Shown here piece after piece: positions 41,167-56,745 of a stretch of 64,000 nucleotides of DNA. The notes under the pieces were generated by a model, which was not told where the DNA came from, searched no databases, and was given only the letters and a program-made list of their open reading frames with translations. Numbering within the stretch: the stretch's first letter is position 1; every line of letters starts with the position of its first letter. This DNA comes from a virus (taxonomy: Duplodnaviria > Heunggongvirae > Uroviricota > Caudoviricetes): IMG/VR virus record IMGVR_UViG_2648501839_000008. The stretch is one strand, 5' to 3'. The position numbers and the translations under genes were made by a program.

Positions 41167-41691
41167 ATGACAACCAAAGATATTACCTACGGTATCCAAG
41201 CTGAACTCTGGCCGCGAGATTACACTAACGTTGAAAAACTACTGATGTTCTGGCGCAGAGAACAAATTCCTGTAAGGGTCACTCTCGAAGATGGCCAGGC
41301 GTTTTGCATGTACGTTTATGGCCTCATGCCATCTCGTAACAAAGTTGACCTTTGCCCAGCCCCTTTTGACAAAGAAAATCGTATAAGGCTCCCACTTGAA
41401 CGCATTAGTACAATTGAATCAGGTGTGGTTGACAGTATCGCTCACGATTTCAAAGGTCGACTAACAGTTCACCCTGATTATGTCGATAATCGGCCATCAC
41501 GCCGCGATTTTTTTGCAATTTGCAACCAAGCCTACAAAGCAAACAAATCTATAAGGGTGTACATGGCGGATGGCCGTGAAATTGAGGGGGTGTCAGCAGG
41601 CGCAGATGCTTGTCAGGTTACACTACGTGTCGAGAACGGTAGAAAAATAGTTGTTTTGTTCGATTGGGTTGAACGAATTTTGCCTTTTTGA
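41167..41691 (+). CDS. Hypothetical protein (174 aa)
   Basis: ORF track trimmed to the ATG at 41167 after the upstream stop. Confidence 0.4.
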   Translation: MTTKDITYGIQAELWPRDYTNVEKLLMFWRREQIPVRVTLEDGQAFCMYVYGLMPSRNKVDLCPAPFDKENRIRLPLERISTIESGVVDSIAHDFKGRLTVHPDYVDNRPSRRDFFAICNQAYKANKSIRVYMADGREIEGVSAGADACQVTLRVENGRKIVVLFDWVERILPF

Positions 41692-41694
41692 GTT

Positions 41695-42003
41695 ATGAAA
41701 TCGATATTGTTACCACCATTATTTTTACTTTGCTCAGTTGCGGCAAATGCAATGGACTATAAGCCTGTCATTCAGTCGCTGATGAATGACGTGTGCTCAA
41801 CGTCTCAGAATGTATCAGTTTGCATGTATCAATTTTCGGCAGCCGTAAAAGCAGGAAAAGCGATAGGTGAGAATGTGGAACTGTGTAAGAAAGTGGCAAA
41901 TGAAGAAAGGGCAATGTTGGATTGCGAATCTAGCGAGTCATCGGCACAGTTCGTTGATGCGCTATTTGACACCAATCGTAAGGCTGTAGAGTCTGTTCAA
42001 TAA
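41695..42003 (+). CDS. Small secreted Cys-containing protein
   Basis: Signal peptide MKSILLPPLFLLCSVAANA; 102 aa. Confidence 0.45.
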   Translation: MKSILLPPLFLLCSVAANAMDYKPVIQSLMNDVCSTSQNVSVCMYQFSAAVKAGKAIGENVELCKKVANEERAMLDCESSESSAQFVDALFDTNRKAVESVQ

Positions 42004-42194
42004 ATCTATAAGGTTAATAACCGGCTAAGTCCGGTTATTATTTTTCACATCACTTCTTTATATCTACAAATCAAATAACCTAAATATATATAAGGTCTAA
42101 AGCCGCAATCGATTATTTATTTAGGGAACACCTTCGACGATCTCGCTTTTATTTCTAGGACTTTCATCCCTGCAAAAAATTTTAAAAAAAACAC

Positions 42195-42222
42195 TTGCAA
42201 TCTTTTTTCGCGTATCGATAAT
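42195..42222 (+). promoter_or_regulatory. Sigma70-type promoter of the AT-rich moron
   Basis: TTGCAA-16 bp-GATAAT with an upstream A-tract (UP-like), about 65 nt before the ATG at 42288. Confidence 0.55.
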
Positions 42223-42287
42223 TGAACTCGTCGAAAGCGAAGACGCTAACGACAATAAATTTTAAATTTACATAAGGAAAAATTATC

Positions 42288-42938
42288 ATGGCTAACATTA
42301 TCATTTCTAAAAAATCCATCATTGAAGCTGCTTCCATTGTATCCGATGAACTGCGCGAAAAAGCAGATCTGGCAACTCAAACATATAACGAACATTATAA
42401 AAATGGTACGCACACTAAAGCAGACAAAGCAAATATGCAAGCTGCGACCACTAAACTTGCTTACTTCATCAACAACGTCGTAAACGCAGTAGAAGACGAA
42501 AAATTATGCTCTGTTTTCTACTATGCGATTAAAGCAAGCAAACAAGCGCCAGAAGTATTTTTCCGTGATGCAATGACTAATAGTTATTCTCTGGAAAAAC
42601 TGGTTTATCTGGTTAAATCAATTAAATCTGGTAAATGCGTTTATTCCATCGCTGATATGTCAGGATCTCGTGTATTCGCTTTAATCGATATGATTAACGA
42701 CGAGATCGACACGTTCACCAATGGCGCTGTTTTCGATTTAATGAATGAAGCTAAAAAAGCGTGTGAAATTAAATTGGACGCTGGCTATACTCAAGCCAAC
42801 CAGTTGATCAATCTTTGCGAACGTCTTGGACTTGTTGAAAAAGTCAAAGGAGCTGGGAGCGCGAAAGCTGGTACTCAGCAATATCGCTTCATTAAAAATG
42901 ATTTCTACAATTATTTAGCTGATGCTTTCAAAGCGTAA
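42288..42938 (+). CDS. Hypothetical protein (216 aa), AT-rich moron gene 1
   Basis: ORF track; RBS AAGGAAAAA; codon usage much more AT-rich than the flanks. Confidence 0.5.
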   Translation: MANIIISKKSIIEAASIVSDELREKADLATQTYNEHYKNGTHTKADKANMQAATTKLAYFINNVVNAVEDEKLCSVFYYAIKASKQAPEVFFRDAMTNSYSLEKLVYLVKSIKSGKCVYSIADMSGSRVFALIDMINDEIDTFTNGAVFDLMNEAKKACEIKLDAGYTQANQLINLCERLGLVEKVKGAGSAKAGTQQYRFIKNDFYNYLADAFKA

Positions 42939-49845: not shown

Positions 49846-51879
49846 TTACTTAACCTGGTGGCCAGGTTTAGCACCAGCATCCGGGCTTAACAGGAAGATA
49901 TCTTTCCCGCCGGGGCCAGCAGCCATCACCATACCTTCGGAGATGCCGAAGCGCATCTTACGCGGAGCCAGGTTAGCCACCATAATGGTGTGACGACCAA
50001 TCAGTGCCTGTGGGTCTGGATAAGCAGAACGGATGCCTGAGAAGACATTGCGTTTTTCACCGCCGAGATCCAGCGTCAGGCGCAGCAGTTTGTCAGAACC
50101 TTCAACAAACTCTGCGTTTTCGATCAGTGCCACGCGCAGGTCAACTTTGGCAAAGTCGTCAAAGGTGATGGTTTCCTGAATCGGGTCGTCTGCCAGCGGG
50201 CCAGTAACTGGCGCGGCAGTAGCTTTCACTTCTTCTTTAGACGCTTCCACCAATGCTTCCACCTGTTTCATGTCGATACGGTTATACAGTGCTTTGAACG
50301 GATTCACTTTATGGCCCAGCAGCGGTTGCTGGATGCCATCCCAGGTCAGTTCCGTATTCAGGAATGCTTCCGCACGTTCTGTCAGTTTCGGCAGTACCGG
50401 TTTCAGGTAAGTCATCAGCACGCGGAACAGGTTGATGCCCATTGAGCAAATCGCCTGCAGGTCAGCATCGCGACCTTCCTGTTTTGCGACTACCCAAGGA
50501 GCCTGCTCGTCGACATAGCGGTTAGCCAGGTCAGCCAGTGCCATGATTTCACGGATAGCTTTACCAAATTCGCGGCTTTCCCACGCTTCACCAATCACTT
50601 CAGCGGCATCAGTGAAGGTTTTGTACAACTGCGGGTCAGCCAGCTCGCTTGCCAGCACACCGTCAAAACGCTTATTGATAAAGCCAGCGTTACGGGACGC
50701 CAGGTTAACCACTTTGTTCACGATATCGGCATTCACACGCTGAACGAAATCCTCCAGGTTGAGATCGATATCATCAATGCGCGAAGAGAGTTTCGCAGTG
50801 TAGTAGTAACGCAGGCTGTCAGCGTCAAAATGATTCAACCAGGTGCTGGCTTTAATAAAGGTGCCGCGAGACTTGGACATCTTCGCGCCGTTCACCGTCA
50901 CATAGCCGTGAACAAACAGGTTGGTCGGCTTGCGGAAGTTGCTGCCTTCCAGCATGGCAGGCCAGAACAGGCTGTGGAAGTAAACGATATCTTTACCGAT
51001 GAAGTGGTACAGCTCGGCGGTGGAGTCTTTCTTCCAGTATTCATCGAAGCTGGTAGTGTCGCCGCGCTTGTCGCACAGATTCTTGAAGGAACCCATGTAG
51101 CCAATCGGTGCGTCCAGCCAGACGTAGAAATATTTACCCGGCGCGTTCGGAATTTCAAAACCGAAGTAAGGTGCGTCGCGGGAGATATCCCACTGTTGCA
51201 GACCAGATTCAAACCACTCCTGCATTTTGTTTGCCACCTGCTCCTGCAACGCACCGCTGCGGGTCCATGCCTGCAACATTTCGCTGAAAGAGGGCAGATC
51301 AAAGAAGAAGTGTTCAGAATCACGCATTACCGGGGTAGCACCAGAAACCACCGATTTCGGCTCGATCAGTTCAGTCGGGCTGTAGGTCGCGCCGCAAACT
51401 TCACAGTTATCGCCGTATTGATCTGGCGCTTTACATTTCGGGCAGGTGCCTTTCACAAAACGATCCGGCAGGAACATGCCTTTTTCCGGGTCGTACAACT
51501 GAGAGATAGTGCGATTTTTAATAAAACCGTTCTCTTTCAGGCGAGTATAGATAAGCTCAGACAACTGACGGTTCTCTTCGCTGTGCGTCGAGTGATAGTT
51601 GTCATAGCTGATGTTAAAGCCTGCGAAATCAGTCTGGTGTTCCTGACTCATTTCGCCAATCATCTGCTCCGGTGTGATACCAAGTTGCTGTGCTTTCAGC
51701 ATGATCGGCGTACCGTGGGCATCGTCGGCACAGATGAAATTAACCTCGTGGCCGCGCATTCGCTGGTAACGAACCCAGACATCAGCCTGGATGTGCTCCA
51801 GCATATGGCCGAGGTGGATTGAGCCGTTAGCGTACGGCAGCGCGCACGTCACCAGAATTTTCTTCGCGACTTGGGTCAT
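49846..51879 (-). CDS. metG: Methionyl-tRNA synthetase
   Basis: 677-aa translation from [26 protein letters not shown] (HIGH-type motif) through KMSKS to the C-terminal tRNA-binding domain; enterobacterial MetRS; true ATG at 51877-51879 (track ORF extended upstream). Confidence 0.95.
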
Positions 51880-52036: not shown

Positions 52037-53137
52037 ATGAGCGAGTCCAAATCGCCGGATGCCCTGAGAGCAATGGTAGCCGGTACGCTGGCTAATTTTC
52101 AGCACCCAACCCTGAAACACAACCTGACTACGCTTAAAGCGTTACACCATGTTGCGTTGATGGATGACACACTGCATGTCGAACTAATCATGCCTTTCGT
52201 GTGGAATAAGCCTTTTGAAGACCTGAAAGAGCAATGTAGTGGTGATCTGCTCCGTATCACTGGCGCAAAGGCTATTGACTGGAAGCTGTCGTACAACATT
52301 GCCACGCTTAAGCGCGTCAAAAACCAACCAGGCATTAATGGTGTTAAGAATATTATCGCCGTAAGCTCAGGCAAGGGCGGTGTAGGCAAATCGTCCACAG
52401 CAGTAAACTTGGCACTGGCTTTGGCTGCTGAAGGTGCGAAAGTTGGTATTTTGGATGCCGATATCTATGGTCCATCAATTCCAACCATGCTGGGCGCGGA
52501 AAACCAACGTCCAACCTCACCTGACGGTACTCACATGGCACCTATCATGTCTCATGGCCTGGCAACCAACTCTATTGGTTATCTGGTCACCGACGACAAT
52601 GCAATGGTGTGGCGTGGACCGATGGCCAGCAAGGCGCTGATGCAGATGTTGCAGGAAACTCTATGGCCTGATCTGGACTATCTCGTTCTCGATATGCCGC
52701 CGGGCACTGGTGATATTCAGTTGACGCTGGCGCAGAACATTCCTGTAACTGGTGCGGTTGTGGTAACTACGCCGCAAGACATCGCGCTGATCGATGCGAA
52801 GAAAGGCATTGTGATGTTCGAAAAAGTCGAAGTGCCGGTACTAGGTATCGTCGAAAACATGAGTGTGCATATTTGCAGTAACTGCGGTCATCACGAGCCA
52901 ATTTTTGGCACCGGTGGCGCACAGAAACTGGCCGAGAAATACAACACGCAGTTGTTAGGCCAAATGCCACTTCATATCTCTCTTCGTGAAGATCTGGATA
53001 ACGGAACACCAACCGTTATTAGTCGTCCAGATAGCGAATTTACGGCTATTTATCGTGACCTCGCAGATCGCGTTGCTGCCCAAATGTATTGGCAAGGTGA
53101 AGTAATACCTGGCGAAATCGCATTCCGCGCAGTGTGA
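52037..53137 (+). CDS. apbC: Fe-S cluster carrier ATPase ApbC/Mrp
   Basis: Deviant Walker A SGKGGVGKSS, CxxC motif ...HICSNCGHH..., divergent from metG as in enterobacterial chromosomes; RBS AAGGAG. Confidence 0.9.
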   Translation: MSESKSPDALRAMVAGTLANFQHPTLKHNLTTLKALHHVALMDDTLHVELIMPFVWNKPFEDLKEQCSGDLLRITGAKAIDWKLSYNIATLKRVKNQPGINGVKNIIAVSSGKGGVGKSSTAVNLALALAAEGAKVGILDADIYGPSIPTMLGAENQRPTSPDGTHMAPIMSHGLATNSIGYLVTDDNAMVWRGPMASKALMQMLQETLWPDLDYLVLDMPPGTGDIQLTLAQNIPVTGAVVVTTPQDIALIDAKKGIVMFEKVEVPVLGIVENMSVHICSNCGHHEPIFGTGGAQKLAEKYNTQLLGQMPLHISLREDLDNGTPTVISRPDSEFTAIYRDLADRVAAQMYWQGEVIPGEIAFRAV

Positions 53138-53174
53138 TAAAAAGGTGGTGCAATGCACCACCTAAACAGTTCTC

Positions 53175-53564
53175 CTACATCACAGGACAATCATCAAACT
53201 CGCCACTTCTTGCGTCGTTGATAATGTGAGTGATCACACCAAACACGGCATTGCTGCCCGTGCATCCATCATCATCCTTTGGCAATGCTTCCTTCTTACC
53301 AGTTCTTAAATCCTCCAGATGCTGACGTGGATACTTCCGGTATCTTTTTACGCGATATTCCCCATCCAGAGCACATACAAGAAGAGATCCATCAACAGGA
53401 GTCAGTGAGGAATCGACCACCAGCAATGCACCCTGCAATATTCCCTCACGATGATGACTATCAGCCGCCCTCATGAAGTAGGTCGCTGAAGGATGTCTAA
53501 TTATCTGCTGATCAAGAGAAATACGGCTCTCAGCATAATCCGCCGCAGGAGAAGGGAAGCCCAT
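53175..53564 (-). CDS. UmuD-like (LexA/S24 peptidase family) protein
   Basis: C-terminal domain aligns with the UmuD/LexA catalytic core (Ser in ...AADSHH..., Lys in ...RVKRYRK...); SOS box immediately upstream. Confidence 0.65.
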   Translation of the reverse strand: MGFPSPAADYAESRISLDQQIIRHPSATYFMRAADSHHREGILQGALLVVDSSLTPVDGSLLVCALDGEYRVKRYRKYPRQHLEDLRTGKKEALPKDDDGCTGSNAVFGVITHIINDARSGEFDDCPVM

Positions 53565-53580
53565 AATACTCGCCTCTTAA

Positions 53581-53600
53581 TACTGTATATGCATACAGTA
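53581..53600. promoter_or_regulatory. LexA (SOS) box
   Basis: TACTGTATATGCATACAGTA = CTGT-N8-ACAG consensus, about 17 nt upstream of the UmuD-like start. Confidence 0.75.
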
Positions 53601-53894
53601 TATGTTGAAGCTATATATTTTTGAACTCTATCTCTTAAAAAAGATGTTAATAAGATGCTAACTATTGAAAGGCATAAATATATACAATTCCAACAAACGT
53701 TATTTTTAACAAATTTTTACTTCCCATTGACTTTCCCAGACTCCTTGTCTGAACTAATGTCCGCGGAAACCACTTTTTCCTTTACGAGTTATCCACAAAG
53801 TTATGCACTTGCACATAGTCTCTATAAATCCTATCTTAATTCGCAAGACACTGATGTTGCGGTATTGTGGGTACATTTGGTTAAAAACGGACAT

Positions 53895-53928
53895 TAAAAA
53901 AGCCCAGTTGACTAGGCTGGGCTTTTTA
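53895..53928. terminator. Bidirectional rho-independent terminator
   Basis: AAAAAAGCCCAG...CTGGGCTTTTT. Confidence 0.6.
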
Positions 53929-53959
53929 AAAGGAAACAGAGTTTGCGCCTCTGTTCCTG

Positions 53960-54157
53960 AGCCATAAGTATCTGGCGACTGAGCTAAGATTAACCGAATG
54001 TACTGGATTCATCAAGAAACGTTGAGCCGTCATGCTAGGTAATAATGACCATTTACCAAACATCGTTGTTCTCAAAGAAGATTTAAGTCCAGGTTTTTGG
54101 TGACTCTAAAACCTTACCTTAACTCGAAATCGTGCCGTAAGTATCTGGCGACTACAG
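53960..54157. repeat. Direct repeats (gtaagtatctggcgact x2; aaatcgtgccg x2) in a noncoding region
   Basis: Copies at 53965/54136 and 54126/54246. Confidence 0.5.
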
Positions 54158-54325
54158 ATATTGCAACTGCAAAGGCAAGCTCAAAGGTATTTGCAGCTAG
54201 GTGCGATAAAACTAAGTGAGGCCTATAGTGCTTAACTTACTTTTCAAAATCGTGCCGCCTATGTTCGCAATCATCGAAGCGATCATTGAGTACGTCAACC
54301 AGCGCCCATAATGCTAGTTGTTACC

Positions 54326-54350
54326 GGCCCCATCCAAATGGGGCCATTTT
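54326..54350 (+). terminator. Hairpin terminator
   Basis: GGCCCCATCCAAATGGGGCC followed by ATTTTATT. Confidence 0.5.
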
Positions 54351-54360
54351 ATTGTATTGA

Positions 54361-55032
54361 CTACATACTTTCTGATCTAATTGAGTTGTTCACTGCTCTG
54401 GCAATTTTCTCCCGCAATTGCTGCGTTCCGTGGTACTGAACCGCAATATCCCGCAACTCATTCACCAGTTCTCTAATCTGGTGATCTTTAAGCTCATTAT
54501 TTGGGTGATGGGCAACAACTCTGGTTAATTCACCCTTGTCTTTTGCTCTTACGTATGCAGCTCTTGTGCATTCGACCCATGTATTACCGCCTACATTAAC
54601 TTCGTAGATTAGGCTGGACTTATCTGTCAATTCGGAACAAATACGGGCCGTGGTCTGGCAACTAGAGCATTCGCAGTTATCGCGGAAACCGTGATCTACT
54701 GGCTTCGGTTTCACATCATCAACTTTTTCTACCCTATCGGAATTTAAATACTTCGAAGCCTTGCTATGCCAATCGCTGGTTTTAGGATCTTGTCCATCCA
54801 TCAAACGCCAGGCTTCAGCGATTAACTCATAACTAGTGACTGTAGCTTCCTGCGCATCACCAATAAGTCGTGTAATCTCTCTTTCAAGCCGACCGCCTAA
54901 CTCCGTTTTAGTGCAATGTTCTGACCAATCGCCAGCCTCAAGAAGCGCGAGAATGCTTAAAATATCGTCCAATAGAACGGTAGTATTATCGACTTCCTTC
55001 TGAAACTCACCGGCTACTGATTTATGCATCAT
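54361..55032 (-). CDS. Hypothetical protein (223 aa)
   Basis: ORF track; last gene of a coupled nine-gene operon. Confidence 0.4.
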   Translation of the reverse strand: MMHKSVAGEFQKEVDNTTVLLDDILSILALLEAGDWSEHCTKTELGGRLEREITRLIGDAQEATVTSYELIAEAWRLMDGQDPKTSDWHSKASKYLNSDRVEKVDDVKPKPVDHGFRDNCECSSCQTTARICSELTDKSSLIYEVNVGGNTWVECTRAAYVRAKDKGELTRVVAHHPNNELKDHQIRELVNELRDIAVQYHGTQQLREKIARAVNNSIRSESM

Positions 55033-55682
55033 TCGTCATCCTCATCCGAGTCATCCTCATCACAGGATGAGAGTAGTGGGTTAGTCATTCGCCCTACTTG
55101 AGTGGCGTAGCCACGCCGACAGAGATTGCGCAGCACACTGTATATTTCGAACATCTCGGTTCGTTCATCGCCAACATCAAGCTCAGATGCTATAGCGTGG
55201 CATTCAGTCGCGAGAGCCGATATTTTCTGAAATAACTCTGCATTATTCACTGTTCGACTCCTGCGGCGTTCTGGTAGTGGCATCCAGTGTGTGACATTGC
55301 TAATCAGACCATATTCATTAGTTTGAGGATGGTTGCCGTTATCGTCTCCGTATTTAAGACTCTCCATAAAGCCATAATGCCTATTACCATTAACGCTCAC
55401 AAAGCCGTAATAAGCAGGTATAACGCCGATCTCACACGTAACCAGTAAAGGAAAACTAGTTCTCCAATTTAGCTCGCCAATTACAGGCATTCGCTCACTA
55501 CAGCTTATCCAACCATCCTTAGATGCGGCTGTATTGGCATAGGCCTTACGGTGCTTCTGTAGCTCTGCTGCAATCGCTCTCACGACTTCAACTGGTGCCC
55601 TTGCAGCAAACTCAATGTTGGTGATCAGCTCATTAAGATATTTCTCGCTTGGGTAGCATTTCTTATTGTTAACGGTGGTCAT
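55029..55682 (-). CDS. Hypothetical prophage protein (DUF551-like WMPLPE motif, acidic C-terminal tail)
   Basis: ORF track; motif recognition only. Confidence 0.4.
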   Translation of the reverse strand: MTTVNNKKCYPSEKYLNELITNIEFAARAPVEVVRAIAAELQKHRKAYANTAASKDGWISCSERMPVIGELNWRTSFPLLVTCEIGVIPAYYGFVSVNGNRHYGFMESLKYGDDNGNHPQTNEYGLISNVTHWMPLPERRRSRTVNNAELFQKISALATECHAIASELDVGDERTEMFEIYSVLRNLCRRGYATQVGRMTNPLLSSCDEDDSDEDDE

Positions 55683-55867
55683 TAGGCAGCTCTCTCAACA
55701 ACAAGCAATTCGTCGTAGTCATAATCAGTTTCGGAACCATCCGTACCGAACAGAGTCACTTTGTCATTTTCCATCCAAAAAGATTTAACCGCACATTGTT
55801 GACCTTTAGATGTTATGAGCACATCACCAGGGATTACGTCTTCAGCGCGAACCTCTAGTGTTCTCAT
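55682..55867 (-). CDS. Small hypothetical protein (61 aa)
   Basis: ORF track; coupled overlaps on both sides. Confidence 0.3.
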
Positions 55868-56745
55868 CGTGCTGCCCCCTCTTTGGTGAAAATACCTGCT
55901 GCAATGCTGTTTATGATGCTGTCAGTGCATGGAGTAGAAAGCTGGGCATCTCCAGCAATTTTCATGACCTCAACATCCGCATATCGAATACCGAGGTGTA
56001 TCAGACCGGCTATACCTGACTTAAGTCGAACATTTTCCATAAACAGATCTTTTTCCCGCTGTTTAGCGGCTTCCAACTCCATCGACAATTTTTCCAACTG
56101 CTCTTTATGCTTCTTGTATTCCTGATACGCGTGCCAAGACTGACCTTTGCGCACACTATCAGTGATATCAGCAACCTGCTCTGGTGTTAGCGTGGTCAGT
56201 GGCTGTGATGGAAAAATCATCACTTGCCCGGCATCCCAATCAAAACCCGCCTTAATTGACTGAACCTCAACTGATGGTGTTGAACCGATGCGACCAGGCG
56301 AATGAACAACGATCGTTACATCCATATCGCGACGATGGCTGTGGTTGTTGGACAAAATACGATTCACCAACTCAGAAAATTTGGATAATTTCATGCTGAT
56401 CCCTCTTTCTCTCCCCGGATAATTCTGTTGCACACATCCACACTCGTCGCAGATGAAAACGGCGTCCCCAGCAATTAACTTTTTGACGGCGTACTGGGAT
56501 TTGTTGCAGAAGCTGCAACAAAGTGTTCGCCTGACTGATAAGGATGGAGCGCCAGATGTCAGCCGCTCCATATCGTTCTTGCGACGCAATATCACACGGC
56601 TGAACTCAACCAGTTTCTCCGGGGATATCTCCTCCTCCGTAGCGAGCGTCTCTAGTCGTTCGAGTATGTTGAAGGCTTTTTCTTGGTAATAGCAGAGTGC
56701 GATGTGGTCATTTTCTTTCACCTTCAATGTTCGTGGCGCTGGCAA
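55864..56745 (-). CDS. Protein with ClpX-type C4 zinc ribbon
   Basis: ...[29 protein letters not shown]... resembles the ClpX N-terminal zinc-binding domain. Confidence 0.4.

Follow-up and report, generated by a model that had tools for sequence, protein, structure and literature searches.

A stand-alone HumD-family gene with a predicted LexA operator on an SSU5-like phage-plasmid

The window analysed here, i.e., the whole stretch of 64,000 nucleotides, carries a stand-alone UmuD′-like gene whose product belongs to the HumD family and starts at the UmuD′ point. The gene has no polymerase partner, and it lies behind a conserved, consensus-grade LexA box that overlaps the -10 element of its predicted promoter. 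These features support, from sequence, the assignment of the protein as a HumD orthologue encoded by a LexA-controlled, stand-alone gene. The best explanation of its role, to which a probability of roughly 80% is assigned, is that HumD dimers produced upon SOS derepression would pair with UmuC of the host, yielding pol V with no need for RecA-mediated cleavage.

The gene itself is an ordinary and already catalogued copy of humD, and is not new. Descriptions of HumD and its LexA operator in phage P1 date back to 1999–2004, and reviews of P1-like phage-plasmids list humD as a LexA-regulated SOS gene. No discussion of humD in SSU5-type elements was found in the literature, including two large surveys of phage-plasmids, which is a gap in commentary and not the sign of a new biological kind. 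The additions made here are minor and consist of an exchangeable module of 426 bp, family-wide conservation of the operator, and recognition of a C-terminal tail, rather than the Ser/Lys dyad, as the hallmark of the family; the tail is the only thread with some potential for novelty. The features of the region are collected in Table 1.

Table 1. Positions of humD, its predicted control elements, and neighbouring genes in the window
Feature	Position	Strand	Basis and remarks
humD CDS	53175..53564 (including stop codon)	minus	ORF list; ATG start; 129 aa
Shine-Dalgarno AAGAGG	53573..53578	minus	Read from sequence; 8 nt before humD ATG
LexA operator (SOS box) TACTGTATATGCATACAGTA, predicted	53581..53600	no strand	Consensus match
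Sigma-70 promoter of humD, predicted	53597..53625	minus	Promoter scan
Hairpin terminator	53143..53163	minus	Terminator scan; 9-bp stem followed by T-run
apbC	52037..53137	plus	Tail-to-tail (convergent) with humD
metG	49846..51879	minus	Divergent partner of apbC
Genes upstream of humD	54361..56745	minus	Variable accessory region common to SSU5-like and P1-like elements

Protein Identity and the UmuD′ Form

The 129-aa reading frame on the minus strand, which the first-pass annotation had assigned to the S24 family, retains the S24 catalytic-domain fold in comparisons with Pfam Peptidase_S24 (PF00717, E = 1.6e-9) and with UmuD′ chains of the PDB (E = 7e-23). The NCBIfam equivalog NF051876, “HumD family translesion DNA polymerase,” is matched with 219.8 bits, where the curated cut-off is 120, and over profile positions 1–129 of 129. 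RefSeq entry WP_000506720.1, which is exactly the window protein, bears the same name, and the PHROGs label is UmuD-like. The kinship with UmuD that had been proposed from the sequence is borne out by alignment, at 44% identity to E. coli UmuD and 91% to P1 HumD, with 69 and 72% identity to gp26 of N15 and gp23 of phiKO2, respectively. The GenBank note on the P1 protein (AAQ14181, AF234173) states that it “functionally complements E. coli UmuD′.” A truncated umuD pseudogene was considered and rejected, because the match to the HumD profile is full-length and the protein is conserved in hundreds of records. An AlphaFold2 model built from a 50-sequence alignment, all of whose members are at least 67% identical to the query, was unusable (pLDDT 43, pTM 0.33).

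The start of the protein coincides with that of processed UmuD. Met1-Gly2 aligns with Cys24-Gly25 of UmuD, which is the site of RecA-mediated cleavage, and in the best match to a solved structure, UmuD′ (1UMU), residue 2 of the query falls on residue 1 of the chain. A longer precursor with an N-terminal arm is ruled out by an in-frame TAA five codons upstream of the humD ATG. The start at the position of UmuD Gly25 and the exclusion of a precursor together indicate that the protein is encoded directly in the activated, pre-cleaved UmuD′ form. The same starting point is found in 109 of the 120 representatives of the HumD family, and direct encoding in the activated form is the defining property of HumD (PMC7092418).

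Comparison with UmuD and with its relatives on mobile elements places these features in context. E. coli UmuD and window HumD share the S24 fold, an alignment of HumD residues 2–119 with UmuD residues 25–139, and an operator of the same quality at similar spacing. UmuD, in contrast, is a 139-aa precursor that undergoes RecA*-mediated cleavage at Cys24-Gly25 and is co-transcribed with umuC, whereas HumD has neither the 24-residue arm nor umuC, and contains an insertion near residues 100–105 (about four residues in the alignment) and a 10-residue C-terminal extension. The mucAB, impAB, samAB, and rumAB systems resemble humD in that their UmuD-family proteins are SOS-linked and borne on mobile elements, yet these proteins are full-length cleavable precursors encoded in operons with their own Y-family polymerase, neither of which is true of window humD. 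By tblastn, thousands of plasmid umuD genes match the window protein at about 38–48% identity.

The Ser/Lys dyad that had been read into the protein at first pass is present on alignment, where S36 and K73 fall on S60 and K97 of UmuD, but its context is not intact: the GDSM motif is degenerate, reading A-DSHH with a one-residue deletion, and there is no arm on which the dyad could act. No cleavable Ala-Gly or Cys-Gly site occurs in the N-terminal segment, the protein beginning at Gly. Conservation of the dyad was assessed in a sample of 121 family sequences, made up of 120 database representatives and the window protein. The Ser position is occupied by Ser in 76 and by Thr in 43, the remaining two having Ala, and the Lys is kept in 118. 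Homologues from Aeromonas and Hafnia phages carry Gln or Tyr in place of Ser and Arg in place of Lys; these proteins without a dyad have nevertheless retained the box and the tail and are truncated in the same way. The lack of an arm and a cleavage site, the frequency of Thr, and the loss of the dyad in distant homologues argue that the dyad does not define the function of the protein, and it is best regarded as a relic that is still partly constrained, possibly for structural reasons.

The alignment of S36 and K73 with the dyad, the hydroxyl group retained in all but the two Ala-bearing family sequences, and the near-constant Lys would also fit a HumD that is still an active S24 serine protease in trans, acting on host UmuD within a heterodimer or on a phage repressor, and cleavage of UmuD can indeed be intermolecular. 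Such an activity is nevertheless very improbable given the degenerate, shortened motif and the Aeromonas and Hafnia proteins, which have lost the dyad. Furthermore, UmuD′ with an S60A substitution remains active in mutagenesis, which means that the known function does not need the dyad.

The LexA Operator and the humD Transcription Unit

Read on the minus strand, the box is TACTGTATGCATATACAGTA, and it is separated from the humD ATG by 16 nt (53565..53580). It had been described from the sequence as a perfect SOS box about 17 nt upstream of the gene; its presence and approximate position stand, whereas “perfect” is slightly generous. The box agrees with the 20-nt LexA consensus TACTGT(AT)4ACAGTA at 18 of 20 positions, with the two mismatches confined to the central spacer, so that the box is of consensus grade with a non-palindromic centre. 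Taken from the genome, the umuDC operator of E. coli K-12 reaches the same 18/20 and stands 19 nt ahead of umuD. Within the 64 kb, the pattern TACTGTAT-N4-ATACAGTA has a single match even when three mismatches are allowed, compared with 0.18 expected, and an exact match to the 16 specified bases would be expected, by arithmetic, ~3e-5 times.

Conservation of the box was evaluated in 80 related viral loci from IMG/VR by means of the pattern CTG-N10-CAG. A box of this form occurs 16–19 nt before the humD ATG in every one of the 80 loci, although the CTG and CAG arms are invariant by construction, being set by the search pattern itself. The 20 distinct box sequences found among these loci owe most of their variation to the spacer, with occasional changes in flanking bases. 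Beyond the box, the upstream DNA is of several unrelated sequence types; TATACTGT is kept in nearly all of them, as is the TATACT that overlaps the box. LexA boxes also precede the homologues in N15, phiKO2, HK140, Aeromonas phage pAEv1818, and Hafnia phage yong1, whose proteins are only 44–69% identical to window HumD (46–49% for the Aeromonas and Hafnia proteins). In GenBank, the homologous sites of phiKO2 and P1 are annotated as LexA binding sites, that of P1 being entered as “LexA binding site in the regulatory region of lxr and humD” (AF234173). Judged by sequence, the window box is a real LexA operator that is conserved across the HumD family. The same 20-nt box, without any change, is carried by phiKO2, where it stands directly beside the annotated lexA site (L005:1137..1175), giving two adjacent boxes.

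The predicted promoter of humD consists of a -35 element, TTCAAA (53625..53620), a 17-nt spacer, and a -10 element, TATACT (53602..53597), which shares four bases with the LexA box. The Shine-Dalgarno sequence is kept in related loci that have the same upstream type. Adjacency to apbC had been pointed out in the first-pass annotation, and the two genes are convergent and 37 nt apart, with the hairpin terminator lying 3′ of the humD stop codon inside this gap. The possession of its own promoter, operator, ribosome-binding site, gene, and terminator makes the humD unit monocistronic and self-contained. Beyond humD, the divergent metG-apbC pair is arranged on the phage-plasmid as it is on enterobacterial chromosomes.

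A further proposal, that the box may also control a divergent transcript on the plus strand, found no backing. No homologue of lxr, which is the divergent LexA-regulated gene of P1, was found in the window, the ORF list and annotation contain no dinI homologue beside humD in the window, and a promoter scan yielded no plus-strand promoter near the box. An 80-aa reading frame on the plus strand (53655..53897) matches phrog_28987 over its full length (E = 1.5e-39) and has no recognisable ribosome-binding site. It was rejected as a gene, since differences among relatives are spread evenly over the codon positions (67:65:56), and an internal stop interrupts four of its six distinct copies; it is probably an over-called ORF that has been propagated in phage annotations. 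The sequence thus offers no evidence of a second LexA-controlled gene here.

The 760-bp gap upstream of humD was also considered as the site of a structured RNA. This candidate was rejected, as all Rfam matches in the gap were below threshold (RNAI, 24 bits vs. a gathering cut-off of 47; toxic sRNA, 21 vs. 50). Between humD and the next gene, the DNA is gene-free and contains two pairs of short direct repeats, GCC[A/G]TAAGTATCTGGCGACT at 53961..53980 and 54134..54153, spaced 173 nt, and TC[G/A]AAATCGTGCCG at 54124..54137 and 54244..54257, spaced 120 nt. Neither pair has a match in Rfam, and both could be products of chance or relics.

Orphan Status, Host Element, and Module Exchange

The first-pass annotation had noted that no umuC-like gene lies next to humD, and this holds on a wider scale. 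The replicon-wide search covered the 64-kb window and, as a stand-in for the complete replicon, a 94–99% related complete plasmid of 108 kb (NZ_JBVDMJ010000004.1). A tblastn search with E. coli UmuC returned nothing credible in the window (best E = 0.53), no match at E ≤ 10 in the complete plasmid, and no UmuC within 3 kb of humD in the 80 related viral loci; the annotation of the complete plasmid includes no Y-family polymerase. The gene order is likewise not that of a umuDC-type operon, in that humD is followed by the terminator and then by convergent apbC. The absence of UmuC matches from the window, from the related plasmid, and from the vicinity of humD in the 80 loci indicates that humD is a genuine orphan, as it is in P1.

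The 1.3-kb region 53100–54400 is 100% identical to several E. coli plasmids of ~108–113 kb. Escherichia phage Cyrano (108 kb) encodes an identical HumD protein, with 92% DNA identity over the same 1.3 kb. The complete related plasmid is mostly 94–99% identical to the window, with a few short mosaic segments at 87–91%. Its virion genes include those for portal, capsid, tape-measure, tail, and terminase proteins, its maintenance genes those for RepB and ParB, and its genes of DNA metabolism those for a DnaB-like helicase, primase, DnaE, ligase, RecA, and RuvC; it also encodes nrdAB, thyA, dfrA51, four tRNAs, metG, and apbC. The literature describes such a gene set as an SSU5/pHCM2-type phage-plasmid. 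The co-occurrence of plasmid and phage genes in the complete relative agrees with the suggestion made at first reading that phage-plasmids are home to stand-alone UmuD′-like genes of this kind, and these comparisons place the window within an SSU5-like E. coli phage-plasmid of ~110 kb. Over the queried 1.3 kb, which takes in the 3′ end of apbC, most E. coli records reach only 80–90% identity. Derivation of the DNA from a chromosomal metG-apbC locus beside an integrated prophage was rejected, all near-identical records being plasmid-borne.

SSU5-like phage-plasmids are widespread in E. coli, Shigella, and Salmonella and carry clinically interesting cargo, e.g., the neighbouring metG, and dfrA51 and CTX-M-15 in relatives. 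A role of phage-plasmid-borne metG in antimicrobial survival has been reported for Shigella sonnei (Tam et al., 2024, as cited in PMC12452169), so that the metG-apbC part of the element is not new and is of clinical relevance. The related plasmid NZ_JBVDMJ010000004.1 contains a second LexA-like box, TACTGTTTACTTATACAGTG, at 41490..41509, which agrees with the consensus at 16 of 20 positions and whose first base lies 46 nt ahead of a gene for a tyrosine recombinase/integrase (41536..42639). This box may mark another SOS-controlled function of the element.

Among the products of the related complete plasmid are DnaE, a RecA homologue, a helicase, and a primase, P1 and some SSU5-like relatives have humD beside hot, which encodes a homologue of the Pol III theta subunit, and both UmuD and UmuD′ are known to bind the alpha, epsilon, and beta subunits of Pol III. 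HumD might accordingly be an accessory to the element's own replication proteins, i.e., DnaE, RecA, or the Hot protein of relatives, in place of host UmuC when damaged templates are replicated. This arrangement is highly unlikely: hot is missing from the window, and HumD homologues are found in N15, phiKO2, and small lambdoid phages without such genes, so that no element-encoded partner is common to the HumD family. In the related plasmid, the genes for the RecA homologue and DnaE are located at L008:4857..5930 and from L007:47203 onward. Because pol V needs RecA-ATP, the RecA of the element could in principle act with HumD.

The closest described counterpart is the humD gene of P1, and the resemblance covers the 129-aa length, the M-G-F-P-S-P start at the UmuD′ N-terminus, the tail, a LexA box 16–19 nt before the ATG, the lack of a cognate umuC, and residence on a phage-plasmid. 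The two differ in the replicon, which is an SSU5-like siphovirus phage-plasmid for the window and a P1-like myovirus for the other, in the spacer of the box, and in the flanking genes. Window humD is convergent with apbC/metG and has no lxr or hot upstream, whereas P1 humD is flanked by divergent lxr, with hot beyond it, and has phd-doc downstream. DNA similarity to P1 amounts to 82.9% over 428 nt and runs from the outer edge of the box at window position 53600, which is also the start of the annotated LexA site of P1, to the humD stop codon. Box and gene together form a compact module of 426 bp.

The surroundings of this module vary in a manner that points to exchange. In the 80 related loci, the gene downstream of humD is apbC in 30, representing the SSU5-like context, and phd-doc in 46, representing the P1-like context. 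Upstream of humD, shared sequence types and the genes hot, lxr, and orf223 turn up with either downstream neighbour, which indicates that the box-humD unit and its surroundings have been exchanged between the two phage-plasmid families. The window itself retains a 124-nt remnant of the upfO/hot-upstream region of P1 on the minus strand (53690..53813; 72% identity over 126 nt, including an identical core of 26 nt), and a perfect DnaA box, TTATCCACA, lies inside this remnant at 53789..53797. The accessory region farther upstream includes orf223 (phrog_20174) and genes for a DUF551 protein and a protein with a ClpX-type zinc finger; orf223 adjoins humD in P1-like contexts too.

Pol V Activation, SOS Modulation, and the C-Terminal Tail

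In an undamaged cell, host LexA bound to the operator that overlaps the -10 element would keep humD off. DNA damage would activate RecA and promote the self-cleavage of LexA, whereupon humD would be transcribed. No proteolytic activation of the product would be needed, because HumD already has the length and N-terminus of processed UmuD′, and a HumD dimer could combine with chromosomal UmuC and RecA-ATP to form a pol V-type translesion polymerase. The checkpoint imposed by the slow cleavage of UmuD to UmuD′ would thereby be skipped, so that replication of the cell and of its resident phage-plasmid could pass lesions earlier, with mutagenesis as the price. We infer LexA binding, SOS induction, dimerisation, binding of UmuC and RecA, and mutagenesis from the 91%-identical P1 protein, the only one for which functional replacement of UmuD′ is known, and from the biology of umuDC. 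In work attributed to McLenigan et al. in 1999, HumD reportedly forms dimers, interacts with UmuC and with RecA filaments, and restores mutagenesis on overexpression. P1 HumD is reported to complement well only when supplied from a high-copy plasmid, its native expression being poor. An SOS-induced, pre-activated subunit of pol V could raise damage-induced mutagenesis of the host, including under quinolone treatment.

Substitution for UmuD′ may not account for all of the protein. HumD residues 120–129, SGEFDDCPVM (DNA 53175..53207), form the extension that UmuD and UmuD′ lack. Its last eight residues, E-F-D-D-C-P-V-[M/I/L]-COOH, are near-invariant in the HumD family, with each position of the tail conserved in at least 109 of the 121 family sequences. 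The tail persists as E-[FW]-D-D-x-P-x-x in the distant Aeromonas and Hafnia homologues that lack the dyad; as it outlasts the dyad in these proteins, it is the better marker of the family. Such conservation suggests at least one interaction or property that is unexplained by a role as a UmuD′ surrogate. The tail bears a loose resemblance to the C-terminal tip of SSB, MDFDDDIPF. It is unlikely that the tail is a short, SSB-tip-like linear docking motif by which HumD competes with SSB for, or is recruited by, SSB-binding proteins of repair and replication; if it were, the phage version of UmuD′ would do more than replace UmuD′ and would have a targeting or anti-host function as well.

A partner that UmuD′ does not have, as the conserved tail could imply, would also suit a HumD that mainly modulates the SOS/RecA machinery of the host in the manner of DinI or PsiB, rather than activating a polymerase. 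By binding RecA filaments or titrating UmuC or host UmuD, HumD would then damp recombination, the co-protease activity of RecA, or the UmuD checkpoint, from which the element would profit. UmuD′2C is known to inhibit RecA-mediated recombination, and native levels of HumD complement poorly. In phiKO2 and HK140, one LexA-controlled region serves both the homologous gene and a divergent dinI-like gene, whose product is a binder of RecA filaments. Modulation as the main role is unlikely, however, given that the P1 orthologue is recorded as functionally complementing UmuD′ and that dinI is not next to humD in the window.

N15 gp26, phiKO2 gp23, and the UmuD-like protein of the lambdoid phage HK140 have in common with window HumD the pre-truncated form, the tail, and the upstream LexA box. 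Their proteins are 66–73% identical to it and have Thr for Ser at the dyad position, and their genes lie beside partition genes or attP/integrase, often with a divergent dinI. In phiKO2 and HK140 (L092:1215..1240), the LexA-controlled region common to humD and the divergent dinI-like gene constitutes a recurrent dinI-humD SOS module of temperate enterobacterial phages.
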